Positions 12,678 through 30,828 are shown, counted from the first letter of the stretch. The stretch: 64,000 nt of DNA from an uncultured Chloroflexia bacterium (GCA_963720755.1 CAVRGP010000002.1:192001-256000); one strand, 5' to 3'. Program-made: numbers and translations. Notes: generated from the sequence alone by a model not told the origin.

Positions 12678-13943
12678 TCAGGCCCCCGAACCGCGCTGGA
12701 TCATCCCGGCCGCGACCGTTCTGTTCGTCCCTTCGTCGACCAGGACGAAGGCACCGGTCTGGCGGTTCGTCTGATAGGCGTCGACGAACAGCGGCTGGGT
12801 CACCCGAAGCTGGATCCGGCCGATCTCGTTGAGGGCCAGCTCCGTCGCGTCTTCCACCCGGTGCAGGGTGTTGACGTCGATCCGATAGGAAAGCTCCTTG
12901 ACGACGGCCCGGGCCCATCGCGTCGTGTGCTTGATCGCGTACCGACGGCCCACCATCAGCGACGCACTCTCGTCCATCCAGCAGACCTGGGCGTCGACAT
13001 CCTGGACGACCGTCGGCAGGTTGTGGGGACGGCAGATCATGTCGCCCCGACCGATGTCGATGTCATCTGCCAGGGTGATGGTGACGGCCATCGGCGGGAA
13101 CGCCTCCTCGACCGGACCGTCGGCCGTGTCGATGCTCGCGATCGTCGATTCGAGGCCGCTGGGCAGGGCCATGATCCGATCTCCCGGTCGCAGGACGCCC
13201 GAAGCGACGGTGCCGGCATATCCGCGGTAATCGATGACCTCGGTCGATTGCGGCCGCAGGATGTACTGGACCGGGAAGCGGACGTCGACGAGGTTCCGGT
13301 CGCTCGCGACGTGCAATCGCTCGAGGTGGCTCAGGAGCGTGGCGCCCTCGTACCACGGCGTGTTCGGGGACCGGGTGACGACGTTGTCGCCGAGCAGGGC
13401 CGAAACCGGGATGAAGGTCATGTCGCGGACGCGAAGGCGGGTGGCGAACTCGCCGAACTCGGCCCGGATGGATTCGAACACCGATTCGGAGAAGTCCACC
13501 AGGTCCATCTTGTTGACGCACACGACGAGATGCGGCACGCCGAGCAGGGTGGAGATGAAGGCGTGGCGGCGGCTCTGCTCGGTGATCCCCCGGCGCGCAT
13601 CGAGCAGGATGACGGCGACATCCGCGGTCGACGCCCCCGTGACCATGTTGCGCGTGTACTGGATATGCCCGGGCGTGTCGGCGACGATGAATTTGCGTCG
13701 AGGCGTCGCGAAGTAGCGGTAGGCGACGTCGATGGTGATGCCCTGCTCCCGCTCCGCACGGAGGCCGTCGGTGATCAGGGCGAGGTCGGTGTAGTCATTA
13801 CCCCGGTCGCGGCTGACTCGCTCGACCGCGTCCAGCTGGTCCGTGAACAGCGACTTGGAATCGAACAACAGGCGACCGATGAGGGTGCTCTTGCCATCGT
13901 CGACGGATCCGGCGGTCGCGAATCGCAGCAGTTCCTGGGACAT
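12678..13943 (-). CDS. cysN: Sulfate adenylyltransferase subunit 1 (GTPase), no APS-kinase domain
   Basis: GSVDDGKSTLIGRLL, REQGITIDVAYRYF, DTPGH, NKMD; TGATG overlap with cysD. Confidence 0.95.
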   Translation of the reverse strand: MSQELLRFATAGSVDDGKSTLIGRLLFDSKSLFTDQLDAVERVSRDRGNDYTDLALITDGLRAEREQGITIDVAYRYFATPRRKFIVADTPGHIQYTRNMVTGASTADVAVILLDARRGITEQSRRHAFISTLLGVPHLVVCVNKMDLVDFSESVFESIRAEFGEFATRLRVRDMTFIPVSALLGDNVVTRSPNTPWYEGATLLSHLERLHVASDRNLVDVRFPVQYILRPQSTEVIDYRGYAGTVASGVLRPGDRIMALPSGLESTIASIDTADGPVEEAFPPMAVTITLADDIDIGRGDMICRPHNLPTVVQDVDAQVCWMDESASLMVGRRYAIKHTTRWARAVVKELSYRIDVNTLHRVEDATELALNEIGRIQLRVTQPLFVDAYQTNRQTGAFVLVDEGTNRTVAAGMIQRGSGA

Positions 13944-14845
13944 CAGAAGTAGCCCTCGCGCTTGCGATCTTCCATCGCAGCCTCGCTGACCTTGTCGTCG
14001 CCGCGGGTCGCCCCGCGCTCGGTGATCCGCACGGCGGCGATCTCCTCCACGATCAACTCGACCGTGTGTGCGTTCGACTCGACGGCGGCCGTCAGGTTGG
14101 CGTCGCCGATCGTGCGGTATCGGACGCGCCGGACCTGCGTGAGCTCGCCTGCCCGCAGCGGGATGAACTCGTTGACCGCGTAGAGCATCCCGTCGCGTTC
14201 GACGACCTCCCGATCGGCCGCGAGATACAGCTCGGGGATGGCGATCCGCTCGGACGCGATGTACGTCCAGACGTCCAGTTCCGTCCAGTTGGACAAGGGG
14301 AAGACCCGGATCGACTCGCCGGGGAAGACCCGGCCGTTGTAGAGATTCCAGATCTCCGGACGCTGGTTGCGCGGATCCCATTGGCCGAATTCGTCACGGA
14401 ACGAGAAGACGCGTTCCTTCGCGCGCGCCTTCTCCTCGTCGCGTCGGCCACCGCCGAACAGGGCGTCGAACTTGTAGCGCTCCACGGCCTCGAGCAGGAC
14501 GCCCGTCTGGATCCGGTTCCTCGATCCGTTGGGCTCCTCCCGCACCAGCCCTCGCTCGATCGCATCCTGGACCGACGCCACCACCAGCTGCAGGCCGAGC
14601 TCCTCGATCCATTTGTCGCGGAAGGTCAGGACCTCCGGGAAGTTGAGCCCGGTATCGATGTGCATGATCGGGAACGGGATGCGCGCGGGAGCGAACGCCT
14701 TGCGAGCGATGTTGAGCATCACGATCGAGTCCTTGCCACCGGAGAAGAGGAGGCAGGGCCGCTCCATCTCGGCGGCGACCTCGCGGAAGATATGGATGCT
14801 TTCCGCTTCGAGACTTCGCAGTTGGGTCAGGACGTGCGTGTTCAT
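13943..14845 (-). CDS. cysD: Sulfate adenylyltransferase subunit 2
   Basis: FSGGKDS, RRDEEKARAKER, WDPRNQRPE, MEDRKREGYF. Confidence 0.96.
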   Translation of the reverse strand: MNTHVLTQLRSLEAESIHIFREVAAEMERPCLLFSGGKDSIVMLNIARKAFAPARIPFPIMHIDTGLNFPEVLTFRDKWIEELGLQLVVASVQDAIERGLVREEPNGSRNRIQTGVLLEAVERYKFDALFGGGRRDEEKARAKERVFSFRDEFGQWDPRNQRPEIWNLYNGRVFPGESIRVFPLSNWTELDVWTYIASERIAIPELYLAADREVVERDGMLYAVNEFIPLRAGELTQVRRVRYRTIGDANLTAAVESNAHTVELIVEEIAAVRITERGATRGDDKVSEAAMEDRKREGYF

Positions 14846-15660
14846 CGGCGTGCGTCACGCACGTCATCGAGTCCGACCGCCGCGAGCAGCCGAGTCAGGA
14901 ACGGGCCGACCGCGGGCTCGCAGACCAGCAGGTCCGGGCTCCACGGGTCGGCCTGGTTGAACTCGAGCATCGTCCCATCCACACGCGTGGCGATCAATCC
15001 TGCGGCCCGCGCGACTGCGACCGGAGCAGCGGAATCCCACTCCCATTGACCACCGGCGTGGACATAGGCGTCCACGGTCCCATCGACCACCGCCATCGTT
15101 TTGACCCCGGCCGAGCCCATCGGCACGAGTTCGACGGCGGTGATGGCGGCGAGCCGGTCGACGATGGCCGGCGGGCGGCTGCGGCTCACGGCGAGACGAA
15201 GCGGACGACGTCCCGCCGCGACAGCCTCCCGATCCGGTCGCGTCCCGGCCGTGTCACCGGATGAGTGGACCCGGTCTCGGGCCGGCAGCGCCACCGCCGC
15301 ATCGGTCAGGCCCCGGCCGCGTTGCCACAGGGCGAGATGGACGGCGAAGTCATCCCGCCAACCGCCGTCCTCGGTGCGCTCGGCGAATTCGCGCGTGCCG
15401 TCGAGTGGATCGATGATCCAGACCCGCTCCGCATCGAGCCGCCGGCGATCGTCGACCGCCTCCTCCGACAGGATCGGATCGCCCGGTCGAGCCGCCGCAA
15501 GGGCCGCCGCAAGGAAGCGTTGGGCGCTGGCATCCCCGGCGGCCCGGAGTTCCGCCACCGGCCCGCTGAAACGACCGGACTCCACCTGGGCTCGGACGTC
15601 CAGCAGGATCTGGCCCGCGCCGACCGCCAGATCGACGGCCAGTCGGGTGTCATCGGTCAT
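14842..15660 (-). CDS. cysQ: 3'(2'),5'-bisphosphate nucleotidase (PAP phosphatase)
   Basis: ILSEE, WIIDPLDGTREF, MGSAG.K, WEWDSAAP. Confidence 0.9.
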   Translation of the reverse strand: MTDDTRLAVDLAVGAGQILLDVRAQVESGRFSGPVAELRAAGDASAQRFLAAALAAARPGDPILSEEAVDDRRRLDAERVWIIDPLDGTREFAERTEDGGWRDDFAVHLALWQRGRGLTDAAVALPARDRVHSSGDTAGTRPDREAVAAGRRPLRLAVSRSRPPAIVDRLAAITAVELVPMGSAGVKTMAVVDGTVDAYVHAGGQWEWDSAAPVAVARAAGLIATRVDGTMLEFNQADPWSPDLLVCEPAVGPFLTRLLAAVGLDDVRDARR

Positions 15661-15862
15661 CGGCAGGTCGACCTGGGCGTGGTCGATCACGAGCGCTCGG
15701 ACGTCTGGTTCACGGGCGGATACCTTGCTGCGGAGTCTGTCGGGAGTCTGTAGTTTGAACGAACGACGTGATCTGGGCACACAGCCGTCCATATAAGCGT
15801 CGCAGGTATCATCGCCGCATGCCAGCCACGCCATCACGCGGCCCGATCCGACTGCCCCCGGC

Positions 15863-16813
15863 ATGACCTTCGATGCCCCGTTGGCGGCGGCGGGCCTCCT
15901 CATCGGCATCGTCGTTGGTCTGACCGGGATGGGCGGCGGAGCGTTGATGACGCCCGTCCTGGTGTTCTTCTTCAAGATCGACCCTCTGACGGCGATCTCC
16001 AGCGATATCGTCGTCAGCCTGTTCATGAAACCAGCCGCCGCGGTCGTCCATCTTCGGCGCGGCACGGTCAATCTCGAGCTTGTCGGCTGGCTCTGCCTCG
16101 GGTCCGTTCCGGCCGCATTCCTCGGTGCCTGGTTCATCAGCTTCGTCGCACTCGATGAAGGGTCGAGCACGCTCATCAAGCAGGTGCTCGGGGTGGCGCT
16201 GCTGGTCGCGACCGCTGGCCTGATCGTGCGCAGCCTGCTTCAGATGTGGCGCAAACGACTGCCGCTCGGCGAGGGTCCGGCCGTCGTCGTCCGGCCGCCG
16301 ATCGTCAAGATCCGGCGGGTCCCGACGGTGGCCCTTGGGGCGCTCGGTGGCTTCATGGTCGGGGTGACCTCGGTCGGTGCCGGCTCCATCATCATCGTCA
16401 TCCTGCTGATGATCTACCCGACCCTGAAGGCATCCTCGCTGGTCGGAACGGACCTCACCCAGGCCATCCCGCTGGTCGCCGCCGCGGCGGCCGGCCACCT
16501 GCTCTTCGGCAGCTTCTCGGCGATGGTTGCGGCCTCATTGCTCGTCGGCGCGGTGCCGGGCGCCTGGGTCGGGGCGCAGATCAGCAGCCGCGCTCCAGGC
16601 GGGATCATCCGGCGCGTCCTGGCGGTCCTCCTGCTGGCGACCGGCCTGAAGCTGCTCGGGGTCGACACGATCTGGGTCATCGCGGCGGCGATCATGGCGA
16701 TCTTCCTCGGGACGGTCATCTGGGCGCTGATCCGGTCGCGGGTCGTGCCCAAGCCCGGCCTGGCGCGGAACACGGAGGCGGCGCTTCCCGGCGCTGACGG
16801 CGGGCCACGGTGA
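15863..16813 (+). CDS. TauE/SafE (TSUP) family sulfite/sulfate transporter
   Basis: [13 protein letters not shown] and GVTSVGAGS internal repeats, LVGTDL. Confidence 0.88.
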
Positions 16814-18141
16814 GCGCGAGCGATAGCGCCGACGACCTGACGCCCTTCGCCGATACCCCACGCCTCGTCCTCGACGGCGACGGCCTCGACGTCCTCGAAC
16901 TCGCGCTCGGCGGTGCCATCCCCGGGCTCCCGGCGTCGGTCGGCGTCACGTCGGATGGGGAGTGGGTGCTGACCGATCGGGAGAACTCGCCGCTGGCCCA
17001 TCTTCGCGTCGACCCCGCCGGCGACTCGACCTTGCGTCCGCTCCGTCCGATGCCCACCGGCGTCGGACCGCGATGGGATCCGGCGGTGCGGCGACCGGCC
17101 CGGGACGTGCGGGGCGAGCTACGCGACCTGATCGGATCCGGTCCGGTCGTCGGCTTCGTGGTGGACGAGCTCCCGACGGTGTCGGATCTGCAGGCGGTCC
17201 TCGAACGCGTACGGGCCAGCGACGCTGCGGCTGTTCTGTGGGCCGTGCCGGTCGCTCGTCACGGAGATGGGCCGGGTCCCGTCAGTGGCGCCGCACTGGC
17301 GCGGGCGAGTCGGTCATTGGCGGAGACCCTCGCATCCGACCTCGCCGGCCCGCCGGTGATCCCGTTGATCGTGCCCTGGCCGGGGCGCGGGCGCGACGGC
17401 CAGCTCGACGTCATCCCCATCGACGAGGTGATAGCGGCCTACGGCGCGACGGAGACTCGGCACGTGCGCGATCTGCGCAGCCCGGCGACCGACCGGCGCC
17501 TGGCGGGCCTGGACGACGCCTTCGAGCGAGACGTAAGCGCCATCTATCCGCCGGCTTCCGCGGCCGAATTCATCGCCGCCCGCGAGCGCCGCGTCCGCAG
17601 CGTCCGCAGCGGTGCCGTCATCTTCTTCACCGGGCTGTCTGGCTCCGGCAAGTCGACCATCGCCCGGGCGCTCAGCGACGCCCTGAGGGATCGAGGGTCG
17701 CGGGTCACGTTGCTCGACGGAGACGAGGTTCGCCAGCACCTGTCGGCCGAGCTCGGCTTCGACGCGGCATCGCGCGAACGCAATATCGACCGGATCGCCT
17801 TCGTGGCCTCACTCGTTGCCGCGCATGGTGGCATCGCCGTGGCGGCGCCGATCGCGCCATTCGCGGCCGGCCGCCAGGCGGCTCGAACCATGGCCGAGAA
17901 CGAAGGCGTGTTCCTGCTCGTGTACGTCGACACACCACTGGCCGTGTGCGAGGCCAGGGATCGCAAGGGCCTGTATGCCGAGGCTCGGGCCGGTCGCATC
18001 CCCGACTTCACGGGGATCAGTTCGCCGTACGAGCACCCGGACGATGCGGATGTCGTGATCGACACGTCCACGACGTCCGTTGAGGAGGCGGTCGCGGTCA
18101 TCATCGAGGCGCTGGAGCGAGCTGCCGGTCCGGGGCGGTAG
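16810..18141 (+). CDS. cysC: Adenylyl-sulfate kinase fused to a degenerate ATP-sulfurylase-like N-terminus
   Basis: [41 protein letters not shown]. Confidence 0.9.
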
Positions 18142-18147
18142 GCCCCG

Positions 18148-19395
18148 TCAGCTGCGGTCGCGACGACGGCCGAGTCGTGTCAATCGGCGGCGGAGACCAT
18201 GGGCTCGGCGTCCGATGGCCGTTCGGATCCGGACCCACAGGACCACCGCGACCTGGATCGTGGGGATCCCCACGAGCTCCGCGGGCTCACCCGGCACGCG
18301 CGAAGCCGACGAGCCTGATGACGTGGATGTGCGCGCAAGTCCACTCGCAACGACCACGCCCATGGCGGTCGCTGCGGCGGTCCGAGGTGAGATGTGCAGC
18401 TCTGCTGCGGCGGCCCCTGACGTTGATGCGGGCGGTAGTCGGGTCAGGTTCTCATGGTCGCCGACGATCCGGACGCCTGAGGCGACGATCGCGTCGACCA
18501 TCTCCCGGCCGACCGCCCCGGCTCGCTCGAGGGCCCATCGCGGTGTCTCCAACCGAGGCTCGCCCGTGGCGGCGGGGTGGGACTTGACGTAGCTCGCGGC
18601 CCCGAAGCGCATCACGGTGGTATGGAGCGGCCGGCTCAGGCCCGCATCGAAGAACTGCGCGTTGAAGGCGCGGACGATCTCGATCTCGGGCAGCGTCATC
18701 GATCGATTGCTGACGTCGTCCTCGGCGGCGAGGGTTCCCACCCGCAGTCCGAGCAGCTGCTCGAACACCCGCAGGACCATGTCGTGATCCTGATCGTCGA
18801 GGGCGACGACGGTGACGTTGTCCGGCCCGACGACCTCGGTCCAACGGGCGACGAGCTGATCGTGGCGGTGTCGACGCCAAAAGACCGGTTTCAGCCTCGA
18901 CGGGTCGTTGAAGACCGCGTCCAGCCAGTCATCGAACGGCCTTCGCTCGCCGCTCTGCACGAATTGTTGCCACTGGGAGGAGAGGATCCGGCTGAGCGGC
19001 CGCAGCGTCACCACGATATGGACCCGTTCGCCACCCAGGTCCTCGACGATCGTCCGGATGGTGTCCGGTTTGGCCTCGGACAGGAACTCGCTGCTGATGA
19101 CCACCCGCGGCTCGCGCGCGCGTCGCACCTCTCCGACCAGGTGCCGCCACCAGCGCATCGATGGGACCTTGCCGGTGCTCGGGCTCGCATTGCCGACGAT
19201 CGCCTGCACCGCCGCCACGGGTTGGCGGGTGGGGCCGGCATAGTGGACACCCTGGGCGGAGACAGCCTCGCGGTTGCCGTGGAAGGCGCCCTGCAGGTAC
19301 GTCGTCCCGGTCTTGGGTGGGCCGATGTGGATGAGCCGGGTGCCCGCGGGCAGGAGCAGGTCGTCCGATCCGTCCGGTCCGGCAGTGGCGGTCAT
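18148..19395 (-). CDS. Sulfotransferase-like protein, array copy 6 (most divergent, unique C-terminus)
   Basis: 5'-PSB-like IHIGPPKTGTT, SSE, 3'-PB-like RPLSRILSSQWQQ; ATGA overlap with copy 5. Confidence 0.75.
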   Translation of the reverse strand: MTATAGPDGSDDLLLPAGTRLIHIGPPKTGTTYLQGAFHGNREAVSAQGVHYAGPTRQPVAAVQAIVGNASPSTGKVPSMRWWRHLVGEVRRAREPRVVISSEFLSEAKPDTIRTIVEDLGGERVHIVVTLRPLSRILSSQWQQFVQSGERRPFDDWLDAVFNDPSRLKPVFWRRHRHDQLVARWTEVVGPDNVTVVALDDQDHDMVLRVFEQLLGLRVGTLAAEDDVSNRSMTLPEIEIVRAFNAQFFDAGLSRPLHTTVMRFGAASYVKSHPAATGEPRLETPRWALERAGAVGREMVDAIVASGVRIVGDHENLTRLPPASTSGAAAAELHISPRTAAATAMGVVVASGLARTSTSSGSSASRVPGEPAELVGIPTIQVAVVLWVRIRTAIGRRAHGLRRRLTRLGRRRDRS

Positions 19396-20606
19396 CGGGA
19401 CCGTCCGACCAGGCGGCGGGTGCGCCGCCCGGCGGCGGTGACGATCCGCCGTCCGACGATGCCGACCATGTCGAGGGTCGAGACCCTGGCCAGGGCGATC
19501 GGTTCGACCGATGTGCGGGTGACCTGACCATCGGGATCGGGGACGAGGCCACTGGCCCGCAGGACGCTCATCGCCACGGTCGCCGCAAGGTCCGGGCTGA
19601 TCTCGGGGTCGGGCTGCACGCCGTCGACGAGCCGGCTGGTCAGGACCGGTCGGAGGTGCTCGGGATCGCCGACGATCCGAACACCCGACGCGGTGATCGC
19701 ATCGACCATCTCCCGGGCGATCCCGGCGGTCCGGTCGAGCGCCCACTGGGGGGTCTCGATCCGGGCCTCGCCGGGACCCGGCTCGCGGGCCTTCATCCGG
19801 GTGGCTGCGCCAAAGGCCATGACCTTCGTATGGAGCGGACGACTCAGGCCCGCGGCGAAGAACTGCTCGTTGAACGCTCGGACGATCTCGATCTCGGCCC
19901 AGGTCATCGACCGGTTCGTCCGGTCGCCATCGGCCACCAGCGTGCCTGCCCGCAGCCCGAGCAGCCGCTCGAACACCCGCAGGACCATGTCGTGGTCCCG
20001 CTCATCGAGGGCGATGACCGTGACGTTCTGTGGCCCGACCACCTCGGCCCAGCGGGCGATCAGCTGATCGTGGCGATGGGGATACCAGAACCACTTCGTG
20101 TGTCGTTCCTCTTGATCCCCGAAGATCTGCTCGAGGAACTGGTCGAACGACGTCCGCAGGCCGGCCTGGACCGTCTGTTGCCATTGAGACGGGATCGACT
20201 TGGCCAGCGGCCGGAGGGTCACCGCGACATGGACACGATCCGGACCCAGGTCATCGACGATCGTTCGGATGGTCTCGGGTTTGGCTCGAGCCAGGCGCTC
20301 GCTGCTGAGCAGGACCCGTCGCTCACCGGCGTTGCGGATCTCGTCGACCAGATCGCGCCACTTCGCGATCGGTGGCACCTCGCCGGTCCTGGTGTTCGAC
20401 AGGCCGAGGATGCTGAGGACCGCCGCCACGGGTTGGCGGGTGGGGCCGGCATAGTGGACACCCTGGGCGGAGACAGCCTGGCGGTTGCCGTGGAAGGCGC
20501 CCTGCAGGTACGTCGTCCCGGTCTTGGGTGGGCCGATGTGGATGAGCCGGGTGCCCGCAGGCAGGAGCAGGTCGTCCGATCCGTCCGGTCCGGCAGTGGC
20601 GGTCAT
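19392..20606 (-). CDS. Sulfotransferase-like protein, array copy 5
   Basis: Starts MTATAGPDGSDD; same PAPS-binding motifs; 404 aa. Confidence 0.78.
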   Translation of the reverse strand: MTATAGPDGSDDLLLPAGTRLIHIGPPKTGTTYLQGAFHGNRQAVSAQGVHYAGPTRQPVAAVLSILGLSNTRTGEVPPIAKWRDLVDEIRNAGERRVLLSSERLARAKPETIRTIVDDLGPDRVHVAVTLRPLAKSIPSQWQQTVQAGLRTSFDQFLEQIFGDQEERHTKWFWYPHRHDQLIARWAEVVGPQNVTVIALDERDHDMVLRVFERLLGLRAGTLVADGDRTNRSMTWAEIEIVRAFNEQFFAAGLSRPLHTKVMAFGAATRMKAREPGPGEARIETPQWALDRTAGIAREMVDAITASGVRIVGDPEHLRPVLTSRLVDGVQPDPEISPDLAATVAMSVLRASGLVPDPDGQVTRTSVEPIALARVSTLDMVGIVGRRIVTAAGRRTRRLVGRSR

Positions 20607-21835
20607 CGGGACCGTCCGACCAGGCGGCGGGTGCGCCGCCCCGCGGCGGTGACGATCCGCCGTCCGACGATGCCGACCATGTCGAGGGTCGAGACCCTGG
20701 CCAGGGCGATCGGTTCGACCGATGTGCGGGTGACCTGACCATCGGGATCGGGGACGAGGCCACTTGCCCGCAGGACGCTCATCGCCACGGTCGCCGCAAG
20801 GTCCGGGCTGATCTCGGGGTCGGGCTGCACGCCGTCGACGAGCCGGCTGGTCAGGACCGGTCGGAGGTGCTCGGGATCGCCGACGATCCGGACGCCCGAG
20901 GCGGTGATCGCATCGACCATCTCCCGGGCGATCCCGGCGGTCCGGTCGAGCGCCCACTGCGGCGTCTCGATCCGGGCCTCATCGGGACCCGGCTCACGAG
21001 CCTTCATCCAGGCGGCCGTCCCGAAGCGCATGAACCTGGTGCTCATGACCCTGGTGTGCACGGCTCGGTCCAGGCCCTCGGCGAAGAACTGCGCGTTGAA
21101 CGCGCGGACGATCTCGATCTCGGCCCAGGTCATCGACCGGTTCGTCCGGTCGCCATCGGCCACCAGCGTGCCTGCCCGCAGCCCGAGCAGCTGCTCGAAC
21201 ACCCGCAGGACCATGTCGTGGTCCCGCTCGTCGAGGGCGATGACCGTGACGTTCTGTGGCCCGACCACCTCGGCCCACCGGGCGATCAGCTGATCATGGC
21301 GATGCCGCCGCCAGAAGAGAGATCTGGAGCTGTCGCTGTCCGGGTCCCCGAAGATCTGCTCGAGGAACTGGTCGAACGACGTCTGCAGTCCCGTCTGGAC
21401 ATGTTGCTGCCATTGCGACGGCAGGATCTTGCTGAGTGGTCGGAGGGTCACCACGACGTGCACCGCATCCGGACCCAGGTCCTCGACGATCGTCCGGATG
21501 GTTTCCGGCTGCGCGTGGGCCAGGCGTTCATTGCTGAGCAGGACCCGTCGGTCACCGGCGGCGCGGATCTCGTCGACGAGATCCTGCCACTTCGCGATCG
21601 GTGGGACCTCGCCGGTCACCGGGTTCCGCATCCCCATGACGGCCTGGACCGCCGCGACGGGTTGGCGGGTGGACCCTGCATAGTGGACACCCTGGGCGGA
21701 GACGGTCGCCTGCCCCGAACGAAAGGCGCCCTGCAAGGTCGTCGTCCCGGTCTTGGGTGGGCCGATGTGGATGAGCCGGGTGCCCGCGGGCAGGAGCAGG
21801 TCGTCCGATCCGTCCGGTCCGGCAGTGGCGGTCAT
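20603..21835 (-). CDS. Sulfotransferase-like protein, array copy 4
   Basis: Same motifs; 410 aa. Confidence 0.78.
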   Translation of the reverse strand: MTATAGPDGSDDLLLPAGTRLIHIGPPKTGTTTLQGAFRSGQATVSAQGVHYAGSTRQPVAAVQAVMGMRNPVTGEVPPIAKWQDLVDEIRAAGDRRVLLSNERLAHAQPETIRTIVEDLGPDAVHVVVTLRPLSKILPSQWQQHVQTGLQTSFDQFLEQIFGDPDSDSSRSLFWRRHRHDQLIARWAEVVGPQNVTVIALDERDHDMVLRVFEQLLGLRAGTLVADGDRTNRSMTWAEIEIVRAFNAQFFAEGLDRAVHTRVMSTRFMRFGTAAWMKAREPGPDEARIETPQWALDRTAGIAREMVDAITASGVRIVGDPEHLRPVLTSRLVDGVQPDPEISPDLAATVAMSVLRASGLVPDPDGQVTRTSVEPIALARVSTLDMVGIVGRRIVTAAGRRTRRLVGRSR

Positions 21836-23064
21836 CGGGACCGTCCGACCAGGCGGCGGGTGCGCCGCCCCGCGGCGGTGACGATCCGCCGTCCGACGAT
21901 GCCGACCATGTCGAGGGTGGAGACCCTGGCCAGGGCGATCGGTTCGACCGATGTGCGGGTGACCTGACCATCGGGATCGGGGACGAGGCCACTTGCCCGC
22001 AGGACGCTCATCGCCACGGTCGCCGCAAGGTCCGGGCTGATCTCGGGGTCGGGCTGCACGCCGTCGACGAGCCGGCTGGTCAGGACCGGTCGGAGGTGCT
22101 CGGGATCGCCGACGATCCGGACGCCCGACGCGGTGATCGCATCGACCATCTCCCGGGCGATCCCGGCGGTCCGGTCGAGCGCCCACTGCGGCGTCTCGAT
22201 CCGGGCCTCGCCGGGACCCGGCTCGCGAGCCTTCATCCGGGTGGCCATGCCAAAGGCCATCACCCCATGATGCATGACCTTCGTATGGAGCGGACGGCTC
22301 AGGCCCTCGGCGAAGAACTGCGCGTTGAACGCCCGGACGATCTCGATCTCGGCCCAGGTCATCGACCGGTTCGTCCGGTCGCCATCGGCCACCAGCGTTC
22401 CCGTTCGAAGCCCGAGCAGCTGCTCGAACACCCGCAGGACCATGTCGTGATCCCGCTCGTCGAGGGCGATGACCGTGACGTTCTGCGGCCCGACCACCTC
22501 GGCCCACCGGGCGATCAGCTCATCATGCTGCTGGCGGAACCAGAAGAGTCGCCTCGATCGGTCGCTGTCCGGGTCCCCGAAGATCTGCTCGAGGAACTGG
22601 CTGAACGACGTCTGCAGTCCCGTCTGGACGTGCTGTTGCCATTGCGACGGCAGGATCTTGGCTAGTGGCCGAAGGGTCACCGCGACGTGGACCCGATCCG
22701 GACCCAGGTCCTCGACGATCGTCCGGATGGTCTCCGGCTGCGCGTGGGCGAACCGTTCGCTGCTGAGCAGGACCCGCCGGTCACCGGCGCCATGGATCTC
22801 CTCGACGAGATCCCGCCACTTCGCGATGGATGGGATCTCGCCGGTCCGTGGACTGGGACGACCGAGCGCGGCCAGGACGGCCTCGATCGGTTGGCGGGTG
22901 GGGCCGGCATAGTGGACACCCTGGGCGGAGACAGCCTCGCGGTTGCCGTGGAAGGCGCCCTGCAAGGTCGTCGTCCCGGTCTTGGGTGGGCCGATGTGGA
23001 TGAGCCGGGTGCCCGCGGGCAGGAGCAGGTCGTCCGATCCGTCCGGTCCGGCAGTGGCGGTCAT
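21832..23064 (-). CDS. Sulfotransferase-like protein, array copy 3
   Basis: Same motifs; 410 aa. Confidence 0.78.
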   Translation of the reverse strand: MTATAGPDGSDDLLLPAGTRLIHIGPPKTGTTTLQGAFHGNREAVSAQGVHYAGPTRQPIEAVLAALGRPSPRTGEIPSIAKWRDLVEEIHGAGDRRVLLSSERFAHAQPETIRTIVEDLGPDRVHVAVTLRPLAKILPSQWQQHVQTGLQTSFSQFLEQIFGDPDSDRSRRLFWFRQQHDELIARWAEVVGPQNVTVIALDERDHDMVLRVFEQLLGLRTGTLVADGDRTNRSMTWAEIEIVRAFNAQFFAEGLSRPLHTKVMHHGVMAFGMATRMKAREPGPGEARIETPQWALDRTAGIAREMVDAITASGVRIVGDPEHLRPVLTSRLVDGVQPDPEISPDLAATVAMSVLRASGLVPDPDGQVTRTSVEPIALARVSTLDMVGIVGRRIVTAAGRRTRRLVGRSR

Positions 23065-24295
23065 CGGGACCGTCCGACCAGGCGGCGGGTGCGCCGCCCG
23101 GCGGCGGCGACGATCCGCCGTCCGACGATGCCGACCATGTCGAGGGTCGAGACCCTGGCCAGGGCGATCGGTTCGACCGATGTGCGGGTGACCTGACCAT
23201 CGGGATCGGGGACGAGGCCACTTGCCCGCAGGACGCTCATCGCCACGGTCGCCGCAAGGTCCGGGCTGATCTCGGGGTCGGGCTGCACGCCGTCGACCAG
23301 CCGGCTGGTCAGGACCGGTCGGAGGTGCTCGGGATCGCCGACGATCCGAACACCCGACGCGGTGATCGCATCGACCATCTCGCGGGCGATCCCGGCGGTC
23401 CGGTCGAGCGCCCACTGCGGCGTTTCGATCCGGGCCTCGTCCGGGACCCGGCTCGCGAGCCTTCACATACGTCGCGACACCGAAGTATGCCCGCACGCCG
23501 TGGTGCATGACCCTGGTATGCACGGCTCGGTCCAGGCCCTCGGCGAAGAACTGCGCGTTGAACGCGCGGACGATCTCGATCTCGGCCCAGGTCATCGACC
23601 GGTTCGTCCGGTCGCCATCGGCCACCAGCGTGCCCGTTCGAAGCCCGAGCAGCTGCTCGAACACCCGCAGGACCATGTCGTGGTCCCGCTCGTCGAGGGC
23701 GATGACCGTGACGGTCCGGTCCGACCACCTCGGCCCACCGGGCGATCAGCTCGTCATGCTGCTGGCGGAACCAGAACGGCGACATCGATATATCGCCATC
23801 CCGATCCTCGAAGAGCTGCTCGAGGAACGGTCCCAGGGGTGTCCTCGCGCCCGATTGGACCGCCTGCTGCCATTGCGACGGCAGGATCTTGCTGAGTGGG
23901 CGAAGGGTCACCGCGACGTGGACCCGATCCGGACCCAGGTCATCGACGATCGTCCGGATGGTTTCGGGTTTGGCGAGCGATATGCGCTCGTTGCTGAGCA
24001 GGACTCGCCGGTCACCGGCGCCGCGGATCTCGTCGACCAGATCCCGCCACTTCGCGATGGAAGGGATCTCGCCGGTCATGGGAGCAGGCATTCCCAGGAC
24101 GGCCTGGATCCCGGTCACCCGCCGATGGGACAAACCGGCATAGTGGACACCCTGGGCGGAGACGGCCTCGCGGTTGCCGTGGAAGGCGCCCTGCAGGTAC
24201 GTCGTCCCGGTCTTGGGTGGGCCGATGTGGATGAGCCGGGTGCCCGCGGGCAGGAGCAGGTCGTCCGATCCGTCCGGTCCGGCAGTGGCGGTCAT
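23061..24295 (-). pseudogene. Sulfotransferase-like protein, array copy 2, two frameshifts
   Basis: 1235 nt; relative to sister copies, a 2-nt deletion near 23714 and a 1-nt insertion near 23440. Confidence 0.7.
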
Positions 24296-25536
24296 CGGGA
24301 CCGTCCGACCAGGCGGCGGGTGCGCCGCCCGGCGGCGGTCACGATCCGCCGTCCGACGATGCCGACCATGTCGAGGGTCGAGACCCTGGCCAGGGCGATC
24401 GGTTCGACCGATGTGCGGGTGACCTGACCATCGGGATCGGGGACGAGGCCACTTGCCCGCAGGACGCTCATCGCCACGGTCGCCGCAAGGTCCGGGCTGA
24501 TCTCGGGGTCGGGCTGCACGCCGTCGACCAGCCGGCTGGTCAGGACCGGTCGGAGGTGCTCGGGATCGCCGACGATCCGGACACCCGACGCGGTGATCGC
24601 ATCGACCATCTCCCGGGCGATCCCGGCGGTCCGGTCGAGCGCCCACTGGGGGGTCTCGATCCGGGCCTCGCCGGGACCCGGCTCGCGGGCCTTCATCCGG
24701 GTCGCTGCGCCAAAGGCCATGACCTTCGTATGGAGCGGACGGTCGAGGCCCTCGGCGAAGAACTGCGCGTTGAACGCTCGGACGATCTCGATCTCGGCCC
24801 AGGTCATCGACCGGTTCGTCCGGTCGCCATCGGCCACCAGCGTTCCCGTCCGAAGCCCGAGCAGCTGCTCGAACACCCGCAGGACCATGTCGTGATCGCG
24901 CTCGTCGAGGGCGATGACCGTGACGTTCTGTGGCCCGACCACCTCGGCCCAGCGGGCGATCAGTTGATCGTGGCGATGGGGATACCAGAACAGTCGCCTC
25001 GATCGGTCGCTGTCCGGGTCCTCGAAGATCTGTTCAAGGAATGTCTCAAACGGCGTCTTCACGCCCGATTGGACCGCCTGCTGCCATTGCGACGGCAGGA
25101 TCTTGCTGAGTGGGCGCAGGGTCACCGCGACGTGGACCCGATCCGGACCCAGGTCATCGACGATCGTCCGGATGGTCTCGGGTCGTGCGTGCGTCAGCCA
25201 CTCATTGCTGAGCAGGACCCGTCGGTCACCGGCGCCGCGGATCTCGTCGACCAGATCCCGCCACTTCGCGATCGGCGGGATCTCGCCGGTCCTTCGGCTC
25301 CGCATCCCCATGATCGCCTGGACCGCCGCAACGGGTTGGCGGGTGGGACCGGCATAGTGGACACCCTGAGCGGAGACAGCTTCGCGGTTGCCGTGGAAGG
25401 CCCCCTGCAAGGTCGTCGTCCCGGTCTTGGGTGGGCCGATGTGGATGAGCCGGGTGCCCTCGGGTAGGAGAAGGGCCGCAGGTCTCGAACCTGACGGGGA
25501 TACGTCGATCGTCTGCGTGACGCTGCTGTCCACCAC
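24292..25536 (-). CDS. Sulfotransferase-like protein, array copy 1 (unique N-terminus)
   Basis: IHIGPPKTGTT, SNE, RPLSKILPSQWQQ; 414 aa. Confidence 0.78.
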   Translation of the reverse strand: MVDSSVTQTIDVSPSGSRPAALLLPEGTRLIHIGPPKTGTTTLQGAFHGNREAVSAQGVHYAGPTRQPVAAVQAIMGMRSRRTGEIPPIAKWRDLVDEIRGAGDRRVLLSNEWLTHARPETIRTIVDDLGPDRVHVAVTLRPLSKILPSQWQQAVQSGVKTPFETFLEQIFEDPDSDRSRRLFWYPHRHDQLIARWAEVVGPQNVTVIALDERDHDMVLRVFEQLLGLRTGTLVADGDRTNRSMTWAEIEIVRAFNAQFFAEGLDRPLHTKVMAFGAATRMKAREPGPGEARIETPQWALDRTAGIAREMVDAITASGVRIVGDPEHLRPVLTSRLVDGVQPDPEISPDLAATVAMSVLRASGLVPDPDGQVTRTSVEPIALARVSTLDMVGIVGRRIVTAAGRRTRRLVGRSR

Positions 25537-25591
25537 CGGCCCGAGGATACCGGAGATGCGCCCAGCGCCGCGGTCTCAGGTCACGGGAATC

Positions 25592-25622
25592 AAAAAGCGG
25601 CCCGACCGGTCGGTCGGGCCGC
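25592..25622 (-). terminator. Rho-independent terminator of the cold-shock gene
   Basis: 11-bp perfect stem GCGGCCCGACC/GGTCGGGCCGC followed by TTTTT on the minus strand. Confidence 0.85.
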
Positions 25623-25630
25623 TCAGAGGG

Positions 25631-26009: not shown

Positions 26010-27224
26010 GTGGATCTCACCCTCCAGGAGCTTGCGCGTCAGAGCCAGTCGGATGTCGCGTTCGTCGAGCGCCTGATCCGCCTCGGTGTGGTCACGGAGT
26101 CACCGGACGGGTTCGTGCCCGGCGACATCTGGAAGGTCCGCACCCTCCGAGCGATCGAAGCCGGTGGCGGGACGGCGGAGGCGGTCGCGGAGGCGGTCCG
26201 TGCGGGACGGGTCAACCTTGACTTCCTCGGCTCGCTCTTGCCGGAGCCAGGCCCGCTCAGCGCTCGAACCTTCCGGGAGTTCATCGCGGCGCAGGGTCCG
26301 AGGGGCGACCTGGTAGGCCCGATCCTCGAGATGCTGGGACTGCCACTACCACCCCTCGACCTGCCGATGCGGGCCGACGACGACGCGATGTTGACGCGCT
26401 TCCTCGATCAGTGGGCCCAGAGTCCAGAGATCGCGCTGCGCGCGGCCCGCCTGATGGGTCAGACGACGCGCGCGACGACCGAAGGATGGACCGGCCTGCA
26501 CTACGAGCTGTTCCGCGGCCTGGGCGGTCCGGATCGCGCCGCCTGGACGCCGGAGTTCCGGGCGCACGAGGAGGAGGTCGCTCGCGACGCGATCGCCCTG
26601 GCCGCCGCCATGCCAGGCTGGCTCATGCACCATCTCGTCGAGCGGATCCTGGCGGCCGATGTCGTGGAGAACCTCGAGATGGGCACGGATCCCTTCGCCG
26701 AACGGCGGCAGGACCTTCCTCCGGGTGCGCGGGTCCCCGCCATCGCGTTCGTCGACGTATCGGGCTTCACCGCACTGACCGAGGAGGCCGGCGACCGGGC
26801 CGCCTCCGACTCGACGACGGTCTTCGAGGAGGTCGTGACGCGGGCAGCGGCGGCGCATGGCGGTCGAGTCGTGAAGCTGCTCGGTGACGGCGCGCTCCTC
26901 CACTTCGTGGATGCGACCGTCGCGATCGATGCGATCCTCGTCGTGCGGGACGCGCTCCGCCCCCGCGGGTTGCAGTCGCACGCCGGGATCGATTGCGGGC
27001 CGATCGTTGAGCGCGATGGCGACGTGTTCGGTCGAACGGTCAATCGAGCCGCACGCCTGGCGGCGTTGGCCCGACCGGGGGAGATCGTCGTCAGTGAGGC
27101 GGTCGCCCTGGTCTCGCCTCGAGCGCGTCCGGCGCTGGAGGCGATGGGCCCGCAGGAACTGAAGGGCATCGACCTGCCGCTGGCCGCCTATCGGCTGGCG
27201 GGCGACCGCTCGCCCGATCGGTGA
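26010..27224 (+). CDS. Class III adenylate/guanylate cyclase with N-terminal regulatory domain
   Basis: AFVDVSGFT, VKLLGDG, DVFGRTVNRAARL. Confidence 0.88.
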   Translation: MDLTLQELARQSQSDVAFVERLIRLGVVTESPDGFVPGDIWKVRTLRAIEAGGGTAEAVAEAVRAGRVNLDFLGSLLPEPGPLSARTFREFIAAQGPRGDLVGPILEMLGLPLPPLDLPMRADDDAMLTRFLDQWAQSPEIALRAARLMGQTTRATTEGWTGLHYELFRGLGGPDRAAWTPEFRAHEEEVARDAIALAAAMPGWLMHHLVERILAADVVENLEMGTDPFAERRQDLPPGARVPAIAFVDVSGFTALTEEAGDRAASDSTTVFEEVVTRAAAAHGGRVVKLLGDGALLHFVDATVAIDAILVVRDALRPRGLQSHAGIDCGPIVERDGDVFGRTVNRAARLAALARPGEIVVSEAVALVSPRARPALEAMGPQELKGIDLPLAAYRLAGDRSPDR

Positions 27225-27244
27225 GGGCGGCTCGGCGGTCGTGA

Positions 27245-28116
27245 TCAGGTCGCCGAGCTTCCGCCCCGATCCAGCGAAACGGCCGTTCCGCTGACCCGGA
27301 TCCCGCCAGTCGTCGTCCGGGACCTCGACCTCGATCACTGCTCGGTCGACCCATCTCGACGCCCTGGCTGATCGTGAACCGGGCGGGTGGCACCAACTCG
27401 CCGCGCCACCGCAGATAGGCACCGAACGCAGCCGCCGCGGCACCGGTGGCGGGATCCTCGACGACGTTGCCGACGGGGAACGGATCGCGCGCACGGAAGT
27501 GGTCGGCGGTCTCGCGCCAGACGAGTTGGACCGTGGTCAGGTCCGCACCCAGCATGATCGAGCGCAGTCGCTCGAAATCGTAGGCGAGCGACGCGAGCCG
27601 GGCGTAGTCGGCCGCGGCAAGGATCAGGTGCTCCGCTCCGGCATAGCTCACCGCCGGCGGCAGCGCCGGATCCAGCTCGCCACGGCCCCATCCGAGGGCA
27701 GCCAGCGCCTCGCTCAGCAGCTCTGCCTCGGCCTCGCGCGTCCGGGGCGGGACGGACGTCAGCGTCGCCCGGACATGTCCGTCCGGACCCACGCTCCGTA
27801 TCGAGCGTCACCAAGCCGTCATTCGTCGTCAGGACGAAGTGGCCGATCCCCGACCGCTCGGCCAGGGCGACCCCGGCCGCGATCGTGGCGTGGCCGCAGA
27901 ACGGGACTTCCGCGGCCGGGCTGAAGTAGCGGACCCGATAGGCGGTGGCCCGCCACTCCCGTCGAGGGCGAGGAAGGCCGTCTCGGAGTACCCGACCTCG
28001 GTCGCGATCCGCTGCATGTCGGTCGGGTCGGGCAGTTCGTTCCCGATCCAGACCCCGGCCGGGTTGCCACCGGTCGGATCGAGCGTGAACGCGGCAAGGC
28101 GGAGCAGCTCGGCCAT
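27245..28116 (-). pseudogene. PhzF-family isomerase/epimerase broken by about four frameshifts
   Basis: AFT..GGNPAGV, GYSETAF, YFSPAAEVPFCGHAT, EDPATGAAA, QGVEMGRPS and IRVSGTA lie in different frames (shifts near 27945, 27790, 27340, 27310). Confidence 0.8.
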
Positions 28117-28193
28117 GTCGCGATCCTAGCCGATGGCAGCGGTGCGTCGTGTGACCGCGCTCAGATCGCCGGTTTGAAGACTACGATCTGTCG

Positions 28194-29775
28194 ATGCCAT
28201 CGACGTTGCGCCTGCTCGATCGCCGTCGGGGACTTCGGCTGCTTGTCGTGACGATCCCGTCCCTGGCGGTCGCCACGTTGGTGGTTGGCGCGCTGGAGAC
28301 CTGGCTGGGCGTACCGAACGCGTCGATCGTCTACCTGGCGGCCGTCGTCCTGAGTGCGATCCTGGCCGGCACCTCGGGCGCCATCTTCGCAGCCATCGGG
28401 TCGGTCATCCTGTACGACTTCCTGTTCACCGGCCCCGAGTACACCCTTCGGATCAGCGATCCGGATGAGTGGCTGAGCGTGATCCTGTTGCTCTTCGTCG
28501 GCGTGGTGGTCGGTCAGCTGGCGGCGCTCCAGCGGTCGCGCACCGATGAAGCCAGGTCGCGGGAGCGGGAGGCGAGGGCGCTCTTCCGGGTTAGCCGCGC
28601 CCTGGCAACGCGTACGTCGACCTCGGCAGCGCTCGAGACGATCGCCGACGTGCTCGTCGGTGAGACGGAGATGTCACGAGTCTGGGTCGTCCTCGACACG
28701 GATGGGTCAGAGCGCACCGTCGTGGATACCGATGGTGGTCCGCGGCCCGCGTTGTCCGCCGTTCAGCACGTGCTTCAGCGGATGCCAGGAGACGAGCCGG
28801 CGCACTGGCAGCGCGTCCACCAGCCCGCGCGCCCGGCGACTCGCGCCACGAATGACGCTGGCCTCCCTGCCTATCGCATCAGGATCGAGACGGCCGACAT
28901 GGTCCTCGGGTCGATCTGGTGCACCCGCGATCGCGCTGCATGGCGACCCGGACCAGACCGAAACGCGGCTGCTGGCGGCCGCCGCTGACCAGACCGGACA
29001 GGTGATCGCGCATGATCGGCTGGCGGCAGAAGCCCGCGCACTCGAGGTCATCCGCCAGGGCAACGAGATCAAGGCGGCGCTCCTGCAGTCGGTGTCCCAC
29101 GACCTGCGGACGCCCTTGGCGACCATCCGAGCCGCCGCAGGAACGATGCGACCGGGCCGCCACGCGCGGCCCGAGGATCTGGAGGAGAGCGTCGACCAGA
29201 TCGACCGCGAGGTCGACTACCTCAATCGCCTCGTCACCAATCTTCTCGACCTCAGCCGGATCGACGCCGGTGCGCTTCGCGTCGACCGAGACGTGTTCGA
29301 ACTCGACGACATCGTCCGGCGAAACCTCGATCGCATCGCCCCGCGCCTGAACACGCGGCGGGTCGACGTGGACCTGCTCGCGCCGCCGGTGGCCGTCGAC
29401 CCGGCCCTGTTCGACCAGGTGGTGGCGAACGTGCTCGACAATGCCATCAAGTACACGGGTGACACGACGCTGGTGCGGCTGCGGGCCTCGTCGCTTGACG
29501 GTGAGCCGTTCGTGCGTCTGACGATCGAGGACGCAGGACCGGGCGTTCCCGAGGACGCCATCCCGAACGTCTTTGACAAGTTCTACCAGGTCCCCGGCGT
29601 CGCGACCGGCTCGCGGTCCGGGACCGGGATCGGTCTCGCCGTCGTTCGCGGCCTCATGGTCGCGATGGGCGGACGGGTCGTCGCACGCCGGAGCGACCTC
29701 GGTGGCCTTGCCATCGACCTCGATGTCCCCGTCGCCACGGTCCCTGCCGAGCTCGAACCATCGGGGATGGGTTGA
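28194..29775 (+). pseudogene. kdpD: KdpD-like sensor histidine kinase (DUF4118-GAF-HisKA-HATPase), frameshift near 28935
   Basis: DUF4118-type TM segment LYDFLFT.P.YTL; VSHDLRTPL; NVLDNAIKY; GTGIGL. Lacks the N-terminal KdpD/Usp domains. Confidence 0.78.
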
Positions 29776-30573: not shown

Positions 30574-30828
30574 ATGAACGAGGTCAGCGACCGGACGGCC
30601 GCCACCGCATCCGCACCCATCGATCACGAATTGCTGCTCATCAAGGAGGCGATCCTCATGGTCGCCTCAGGCCACTCGCCCCGCGTCATCCTGGCGGGCA
30701 TCCACTTCGGCGAGGCGCTGCTCGATCCTGGTCGGCGACTGGCACACGACGCCGGCGTCCAATTGATCCCTCTCCGGAGGGTGGACAACGCCCGTTCCGA
30801 CCTCGCGATCGAACGACTCGAGCGTTGA
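30574..30828 (+). CDS. Small hypothetical protein
   Basis: 84-aa ORF overlapping the start of the permease remnant. Confidence 0.55.
   Translation: MNEVSDRTAATASAPIDHELLLIKEAILMVASGHSPRVILAGIHFGEALLDPGRRLAHDAGVQLIPLRRVDNARSDLAIERLER

Follow-up and report, generated by a model that had tools for sequence, protein, structure and literature searches.

A stretch of 64,000 nucleotides (hereafter the window) from an uncultured Chloroflexia bacterium (GCA_963720755.1, CAVRGP010000002.1:192001-256000) carries on its minus strand six head-to-tail paralogous genes for sulfotransferase-like proteins, running from position 25536 down to 18148. At 5/5 junctions the upstream gene ends in CGATGA and the next ATG overlaps the preceding stop codon (ATGA), and the last gene converges on cysC across a gap of 6 bp (cysC end, 18141; c6 end, 18148). 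An original prediction, made from this sequence, had described six tandem copies, ATGA coupling and convergence on cysC, and on all three it is confirmed, with products of 404-415 amino acids (aa) and with the second copy frameshifted in the window. The two motifs it had quoted, IHIGPPKTGTT and RP....SQWQQ, are found in all six copies, with six residues and not four between RP and SQWQQ (RP-x6-SQWQQ). The broken second copy, the outlying sixth copy, a gene-conversion patchwork and a likely dimer go beyond that prediction.

The genes, named c1 to c6, and the elements within and ahead of them are listed below. Four blocks vary among c1-c5, namely V1 (aa 53-78), V2 (aa 99-112), V3 (aa 135-178) and V4 (aa 250-272). 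L056 is the syntenic locus of another species representative, with flanking genes 78-96% identical to those of the window.

24292..25536, minus strand: c1, sulfotransferase-like paralogue, first gene of the array, 414 aa, GTG start
23061..24295, minus strand: c2, paralogue frameshifted twice in the assembly (near 23711 and near 23446), probably through read errors; V1 (SHRRVTG) and V4 insert (HHGVRAY) of its own
21832..23064, minus strand: c3, paralogue, 410 aa
20603..21835, minus strand: c4, paralogue, 410 aa; V4 insert STRFM, common to c4 and copy a1 of L056
19392..20606, minus strand: c5, paralogue, 404 aa; the copy used for the structure model (predicted local distance difference test score, pLDDT, 91) and for dimer folding
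18148..19395, minus strand: c6, divergent terminal paralogue (type B), 415 aa; orthologue of the last gene in the two-copy loci of relatives
20373..20450, minus strand: V1 of c5 (aa 53-78), an example of the variable loop-helix, which differs from copy to copy and is kept between species
19395..19790, minus strand: homogenized C-terminal block of c5 (aa 273-404), in which the helix of the predicted dimer (aa 333-355) and the basic, amphipathic tail are located
25536..25549, minus strand: TATCCT seven bases ahead of the c1 GTG, candidate leaderless promoter
25595..25624, minus strand: terminator-like hairpin ending the upstream cold-shock gene, which sets the array apart from that gene

Integrity and copy number of the array

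Five of the genes are intact (404-415 aa), and c2 is broken in the window sequence, where, compared with its siblings, 2 nucleotides (nt) are missing near 23711 and 1 nt is extra near 23446. Short-read contigs of set X1 carry +2 at 23711 (depth 2.5) and -1 at 23446 (depth 5.6), a contig of set X3 carries -1 at 23440, and three further 1-nt indels relative to X1 lie outside the array (25999, 27309 and 27337). Because the short-read contigs restore the frame and other 1-nt indels occur nearby, the c2 frameshifts are probably assembly errors, and c2 is probably intact in the cell. Indel errors seem frequent elsewhere in this assembly and also in L056: a PhzF-like gene (27091-28129) and a KdpD-like gene (28194-29775) appear split by frameshifts. 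An APC-type transporter/KdpD-associated membrane gene lies in pieces over several frames at 30574-32068, a likely pseudogene or assembly damage. A 99-nt tRNA-Gly(gcc) called by ARAGORN inside the c6 coding sequence (18744-18842, minus strand) is probably spurious.

No further array copy was found by tblastn in the 3.0-Mb, 93.6%-complete assembly, and among 88 fetched homologue loci the copy number never exceeds four. The X1 contig over the shared block has a depth of 37.1, as compared with 4.5-8.9 for eight single-copy pieces, which fits five or six collapsed copies, bearing in mind that depth does not equal copy number and that X1 may be the source sample. None of the short-read contigs spans the array. 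Regarding transcription, a sigma-70 promoter scan returned 0 sites; a leaderless-type pattern precedes the first copy at 13/54 loci, against 1.3% of random, unmatched windows, which is suggestive only.

A homogenized scaffold with retained variable blocks

The identity among c1-c5 is 87-90% for DNA and 84-90% for protein; c6 stands clearly apart from them (68-70% and 59-61%, respectively). Along the genes this similarity is distributed in blocks. The C-terminal block (aa 273-404) is 97-99% identical among c1-c5, with a synonymous divergence (dS) among c1, c3, c4 and c5 of 0.07, vs 0.5-1.1 in the V blocks, and the scaffold blocks of c1-c5 are 95-98% identical within the genome and cluster by genome. 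L056 contains three copies of the c1-c5 kind, here called type A (a1, a2 and a3), and one c6-like copy. When it is compared with the window, copies of one genome agree in 97-100% of aa 273-404 and copies of different genomes in 84-85%; for V1 the corresponding identities are 58-83% and up to 87%. The cross-species pairs in V1 are a1/c4, a2/c2 and a3/c3, and V4 insertions are also common to a1/c4 and to a2/c2. In approximately unbiased (AU) tests on the window/L056 DNA, a tree grouped by genome is incompatible with V1 (p 0.0005), and a pair or type tree is rejected by the constant blocks, in DNA as well as in protein.

Addition of a third lineage at the protein level (P0001 and P0006) leads to constant blocks grouped by genome, with support of 94-100, and variable blocks grouped by type, with support of 79-95. 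Genome grouping is then rejected by V1 (AU p 1e-8) and by V1, V2 and V4 together (p 0.009), and V4 alone rejects neither tree. V1 types with residues such as H/C-RRV and QPIEAV persist over the three lineages. The copies c1-c5 are themselves mosaics: any one tree explains at most 24/83 informative sites, and equal splits are clustered along the genes (24 observed vs 8.9 expected, 0/20000 permutations). A second clade with two paralogue types (L059, L062 and L091) shows within-genome identities of 95-100% at aa 111-130 and 171-250 and of 93-100% at aa 271-310, with V1, V3, V4 and the C-terminus grouping by type (AU p <= 0.001). The tract boundaries are common to its three genomes, in one of which the copies lie 3.3 kb apart. 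Within the tracts, paralogues are closer to each other than to their orthologues, synonymous sites included, and the trees conflict along the gene, the pattern by which concerted evolution is recognized. Judging from these comparisons, the patchwork very probably reflects interlocus gene conversion that has repeatedly spared the same positions.

Artefacts of assembly or polishing, such as strain mixture or the bleeding of consensus between repeats, could in principle create an array or identical blocks, and the indel errors of the assembly and the lack of a short-read contig spanning the array would fit such an origin. We regard it as extremely unlikely, given that the short-read contigs collapse the shared block at about 6x depth, that the independent syntenic genome is homogenized with its own genome-specific substitutions, and that the tract boundaries recur in the three genomes of the second clade, including the one with distant copies.

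In the relatives with two copies, one gene is of type A and the other of type B, and V1 and V2 hardly vary. Since these relatives keep one of each, an ancestor with two genes, type A and type B/c6, is likely, type A having expanded later. Since V1 and V2 are nearly constant in single-copy type-A orthologues, these sites seem to be normally constrained. The original prediction of diversified rather than redundant copies is supported by the retention of V1 across species and by the block-wise conflict between trees, and from these sequence patterns it appears probable that the copies are functionally distinct.

Several results weigh against this reading. Positive selection in the sense of a ratio of nonsynonymous to synonymous substitution (dN/dS) above 1 was considered and rejected, dN/dS being below 1 throughout and 0.13-0.52 in the V blocks. 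In the AU test on window/L056 DNA, V2 and V4 did not reject genome grouping and V3 follows genome, and the pooled V1, V2 and V4 rejected neither tree. The type trees were drawn after inspection of the V blocks. Near-identical blocks occur in only 5/47 multi-copy loci, three of which are those of the second clade, in a scan that took one pair per locus and included some redundant loci. Nor do the V blocks all fit a neat one-to-one tree of orthologues: between the window and L056, V4 rejects such a tree and V3 follows genome.

Some of these results suit an explanation by dosage amplification or neutral unequal crossing-over, in which the copies are redundant and the variable blocks survive since their divergence blocks local recombination; as known from population genetics, divergent tracts resist conversion without any selection. 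The dN/dS values below 1 everywhere are compatible with it, and ATGA coupling would suit bulk expression. It leaves aside, however, that the same positions are unconverted in an independent clade, that orthologous V1 types persist in three lineages with specific residues, and that V1 and V2 are almost constant in single-copy type-A orthologues, and we consider it very unlikely. Retained, functionally distinct copies on a converted scaffold are our preferred reading of the patchwork, and it is in this way of evolving, with a scaffold apparently homogenized and V1 apparently retained across species, that the novel element of the locus lies.

One short-read contig of set X2 (25147-25432) joins a c1-type V1 to a c4-type V2, a combination nearest to copy a1 of L056. 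It could represent either strain-level conversion or a graph chimera at a 33-nt exact stretch common to both copies, and it was not used as evidence.

A glycan sulfotransferase-like fold with a predicted dimer

The AlphaFold 2 model of c5 (pLDDT 91.4) has as its top fold matches the heparan-sulfate sulfotransferases NDST1 and 3-OST and the structure 3rnl, with Z of 15.5-16.0 over 222-238 aligned residues and root-mean-square deviations of 3.4-4.0. The next-best sulfotransferase reaches Z 11.0, cytosolic SULTs no more than 10.5 and the best kinase 9.2. The matched core comprises residues 16-321, with 11-16% identity to the structural matches, and in a Foldseek search with the same model 9/9 matches at E <= 0.001 are sulfotransferases. 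The motifs that bind 3'-phosphoadenosine 5'-phosphosulfate (PAPS) are also in place. The 5'-phosphosulfate-binding (5'-PSB) loop KTGTT occurs in 6/6 copies, with K28 kept in 84/85 homologues and T31 in 85/85. The 3'-phosphate-binding (3'-PB) motif consists of an Arg after strand 4 and a Ser eight residues on; here R132, at the end of strand 125-131, is found in 85/85 homologues and S140 in 84/85. The triad N-R-S at 231-233 is kept in 84-85/85 homologues, and E103, within S-[SN]-E, is invariant among them. In the heparan-sulfate sulfotransferases a catalytic acid lies in the loop after strand 2; no conserved Glu was found at the corresponding place in V1.

Sequence profiles are less favourable. 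Among the Pfam sulfotransferase models considered, Sulfotransfer_1/2/3/4 (PF00685, PF03567, PF13469 and PF17784), no cut-off is reached by any of the five window copies scanned (best E 0.015, with 15.6 bits vs 22.8 for PF17784), only 7/85 members have E <= 0.1 (best E 0.0018), and a search of the PDB by sequence with a profile of the 85 homologues gave 0 matches at E <= 10. A two-domain homologue, P0124, does pass the Pfam cut-off on summed score, and the ESM Atlas returns clusters that are unnamed or automatically named 'sulfotransferase family', which we take as a lead only. Of the searches proposed with the original prediction, the structural one returns sulfotransferase folds and the profile one stays below every Pfam cut-off, while the claimed fold and PAPS motifs are borne out by structure comparison (Z 15.5-16.0) and motif conservation. 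P-loop kinases, or another kind of transferase, would have to be considered in view of the fold common to nucleoside-monophosphate kinases (Z up to 9.2) and of the missed family cut-offs; the KTGTT loop combined with an R-x7-S 3'-phosphate motif, the gap in Z to the kinases and the strict co-occurrence with cysD described below make this exceedingly improbable. We predict with high confidence that the array proteins are PAPS-dependent sulfotransferases. They resemble heparan-sulfate-type glycan sulfotransferases and yet fit no described family.

At E <= 1e-30 this large family counts 1,569 representatives, its relatives being found in Chloroflexota (Limnocylindria among the record titles) and Actinomycetota, and it is kept even in genomes of ~1.1 Mb. 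In a subfamily of ~545 aa (P0063, P0074, P0083 and P0106) the C-terminal helix pair is apparently repeated, giving two dimer-helix/EP-tail units.

In NDST1, the catalytic Lys614 is followed 27 residues later by the ligand-binding Glu641, and the 3'-PB helix by His716 (PMC3733922). Transferred from K28 and S140, the corresponding offsets lead to the start of V1 and to the variable residue after QWQQ. Because the offsets of the NDST1 ligand residues fall in V1 and after QWQQ, blocks V1-V3 probably face the acceptor; as a counterweight, this placement comes from spacing and strand order.

The segment after residue ~321 lies outside the matched core. It ends in a helix (377-403 in the c5 model) with a net charge of +7 to +11 over the last 30 aa and a hydrophobic moment of 0.67-0.77, vs a median of 0.23-0.26, so that the basic, amphipathic C-terminal tail of the original prediction is recovered by charge, moment and model alike. 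No transmembrane segment was found in the array proteins, and the modelled tail fits membrane tethering. Two-copy prediction for c5 gave a homodimer score of 0.76, vs 0.00 for the best control, above a mark reached by 20/30 solved pairs and 1/23 single chains; at least 73% of contacts agree between runs, with pLDDT of at least 83. On these models, the array proteins are likely to be homodimeric. The predicted interface, formed by residues 237-267 and 333-355, is identical across c1-c5 at 30/34 positions and between c6 and c5 at 23/34. The dimer helix is homogenized in the window lineage, unlike in the second clade. As the predicted interface lies within the homogenized part, mixed dimers among the co-translated c1-c5 are possible, a tentative suggestion to which we give somewhat less than even odds.

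Sulfate activation beside the array

The genes next to the array cover the supply of PAPS and the probable removal of its product, 3'-phosphoadenosine 5'-phosphate (PAP).

16810..18141, plus strand: cysC, with an adenosine 5'-phosphosulfate (APS) kinase domain at aa 268-418; N-terminal ~260 aa without a Pfam family among those shown
15863..16813, plus strand: TauE/SafE-family membrane transporter, probably for sulfate/anion uptake
14842..15735, minus strand: CysQ-like enzyme of the inositol-monophosphatase family, probable PAP phosphatase; start uncertain
13943..14845, minus strand: cysD, ATP sulfurylase small subunit, the sole PF01507 match in the genome
12678..13943, minus strand: cysN, ATP sulfurylase GTPase subunit

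cysD lies inside 42/73 fetched genome loci of homologues. Among the 131 genomes of the genus the family is found in 8 and cysD in 10, the latter in 8/8 family-positive and 2/123 family-negative genomes; in a DNA search of the genus 58/131 genomes matched, only 8 of them at gene length, the others being chance pieces of 22-69 bases. No second gene of the PAPS-reductase family was found in the 93.6%-complete genome, nor was a sulfite reductase (PF01077) in the window genome or in 5/5 other family-positive genomes. Because neither was found, PAPS is probably made for transfer and not for cysteine synthesis. The dedicated PAPS module that had been proposed is therefore supported both by the co-occurrence of cysD and by these two negative searches.

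The N-terminal part of CysC (window 16810-17600) is conserved in most loci bearing the module. An Rrf2-family regulator (L026:10743-11189 and L035:6954-7400) belongs to the module in the ~1.1-Mb genomes, where as many as four paralogues are kept despite streamlining. The window genome also contains, twice, an unrelated Sulfotransfer_3 gene of ~610 aa (G000:C2:39009-39602 and G000:C9:21632-22225), with similar neighbours of glycosyltransferase family 2 (GT2) on contigs C2, C9 and C10. The pair is a possible second consumer of PAPS, or else a duplicated or strain-split glycan locus.

The candidate acceptor

The family PF04464, which comprises TagF-like polymerases of teichoic acid, tends to accompany the sulfotransferases. 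It is found in 7/8 family-positive and 49/123 negative genomes of the genus itself (56/131 overall), in 9/9 vs 1/7 genomes of another family of the order (those of ~1.1 Mb), in 6/6 vs 0/6 genomes of other genera of the same family, and in 1/1 positive genome of another order of the class, which amounts to 23/24 positive vs 50/136 negative genomes, the sets beyond the genus being hand-picked from the genomes listed. One of the 33 long homologues scanned, P0194, fuses the sulfotransferase-like domain to a GT2 domain and a TarS linker, and in two Streptomyces loci (L125 and L128) the homologue stands directly ahead of IspD-SDR and a PF04464 gene, SDR denoting short-chain dehydrogenase/reductase. 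The window genome has its own cluster of this kind on contig C6, tagF-ispD(tarI)-SDR(tarJ)-tagF, with GT2, glycosyltransferase family 4 (GT4) and LCP genes nearby; this teichoic-acid-like cluster lies at G000:C6:39400-43300 (L146:11409-15308).

Because of the co-occurrence of TagF and the TarS-like fusion, a teichoic-acid-like wall polymer is the best-supported candidate for the acceptor, and sequence evidence tilts the balance slightly in its favour. Speaking against it, the co-occurrence is among kin and hence non-independent, the family is missing from the majority of the TagF-positive genomes in the genus, no glycan gene was found beside the array within the window, and teichoic-type genes occur in only 3 of 19 neighbourhoods, other glycan genes in 5 and none in 11, in a partial scan of 79/162 called proteins plus 11 rescanned.

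Two other kinds of acceptor deserve attention. A small molecule or lipid, as in sulfolipids, secondary metabolites or xenobiotics, would turn the V loops into determinants of substrate range comparable to those of cytosolic SULT or UGT clusters. The window module without a glycan gene, the 11/19 neighbourhoods without one, the top Foldseek match 3rnl, for which no substrate is stated, and the patchy distribution in the genus (8/131) are in line with this idea, which nevertheless has to face the nested TagF co-occurrence (23/24 vs 50/136), the TarS-like fusion and a fold nearer to the glycan sulfotransferases (Z 15.5-16) than to the cytosolic SULTs (Z <= 10.5). Alternatively, the acceptor might be another surface glycan, such as a Wzy-type exopolysaccharide, a protein O-glycan or a rhamnose polymer, TagF merely marking glycan-rich lineages. 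Neighbouring genes do point in that direction at several loci, with GT2 and rml genes in L070, GT2/GT4 genes in L098 and L119, a PMT gene in L113, and a Wzy_C (O-antigen ligase) protein with a sugar transferase near the module in L026, and the genome has 19 GT2 matches; the specific fusion to a TarS linker and the adjacency of tarI, tarJ and tagF in Streptomyces argue for the teichoic-acid-like polymer instead. We hold both alternatives to be quite unlikely, and to a similar degree.

In the open-access literature searched, we found no report on sulfated teichoic acid or on this sulfotransferase family, and likewise none on teichoic-acid genes focused on this Chloroflexota class or on Limnocylindria together with sulfotransferases; a term search of PMC13212565 gave 0 occurrences of sulfotransferase or teichoic.

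A model for the array and its significance

All together, these results allow us to propose a self-supplied module in which diversified, dimeric sulfotransferases act on a teichoic-acid-like wall polymer, a reading to which we assign a probability of roughly 0.5. Going by the protein families, TauE would import the anion, CysDN and CysC would make PAPS, and the CysQ-like enzyme would clear PAP. The six genes would give rise to cytoplasmic, probably membrane-associated, dimeric PAPS-dependent sulfotransferases with a core like that of the heparan-sulfate sulfotransferases. From a putative two-gene ancestor (type A and type B/c6), type A would have expanded to five copies in the window lineage, with repeated conversion between neighbours holding scaffold, PAPS site and dimer interface close to identity. 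V1, a loop-helix after strand 2, and in part V2 and V4, would escape homogenization and persist across species, as expected if selection keeps distinct acceptor specificities or regio-specificities. The acceptor would most likely be a ribitol or glycerol teichoic-acid-like wall polymer or the sugars attached to it, with sulfation taking place on the lipid carrier, on the inner side of the membrane.

Phage-receptor masking, which the original prediction had considered possible, gains no support from these data, and that phages drive this diversification is doubtful. A still bolder version, in which a combinatorial enzyme bank writes the sulfation of a teichoic-acid-like polymer, with reshuffled loops and up to 15 dimers from five subunits, and with a surface code shifting under pressure from phages or predators, we judge unlikely.

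Few sulfated bacterial surface polymers are on record, and outside cyanobacteria they are described as uncommon (PMC13390465). If the bolder version is true, the sulfation of teichoic-acid-like polymers would be an undescribed wall modification, and an evolutionary design resembling that of the major histocompatibility complex (MHC) would be found in a biosynthetic enzyme. The family is large and Pfam-less, and cultured actinomycetes carry homologues, so that the question of the acceptor is testable. The array is in addition a natural domain-swap set, five near-identical scaffolds with differing loops, which might lead to the residues that set acceptor or position specificity; in a fold like that of the heparan-sulfate sulfotransferases, such residues are relevant to enzymatic glycan sulfation.

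Comparison with known systems

The array proteins share the core fold, the 5'-PSB Lys loop and the 3'-PB Arg/Ser with NDST1 (1nst/9f6z), 3-OST (3bd9/7sce) and the uncharacterised Alicyclobacillus protein 3rnl, and, as for the heparan-sulfate enzymes, a polymer is a plausible acceptor. Unlike NDST1 and 3-OST, they appear to be cytoplasmic, no transmembrane anchor of the Golgi type-II kind having been found in them, they owe the predicted dimer and the tail to additional elements, a helical hairpin (236-273) and C-terminal helices (338-403), and they are encoded in a tandem array apparently under gene conversion. They also differ from NDST1 at the position of Glu641, where an acid is not conserved; their invariant acid is E103.

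Among systems that diversify a surface, the fucosyltransferase paralogues futA and futB of Helicobacter pylori modify surface glycans and exchange sequence within and between genes (PMC2583950). The array described here differs from them in its up to six tandem coupled genes, in its sulfotransferase-like products, and in a scaffold that is homogenized around putative specificity blocks kept from species to species. We noticed no slipped-strand tract in it. For the wps-1 locus of Actinoplanes, with its heparan-sulfate-sulfotransferase-like WpsH, sulfation of a surface exopolysaccharide has been proposed, without biochemical proof (PMC13390465). That locus and the one for cyanobacterial synechan are Wzx/Wzy exopolysaccharide loci, whereas the module described here stands by itself, has PAPS genes of its own and points to teichoic-type polymers through TagF and TarS. 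In its mode of evolution, the array also resembles the concerted evolution of MHC genes, as in birds, where a homogenized framework carries old, trans-species variable regions, with parallels in flagellin and in Neisseria lgt. The MHC and flagellin systems are receptors or antigens, whereas the array would be a bank of cytoplasmic biosynthetic enzymes in an uncultured soil bacterium.

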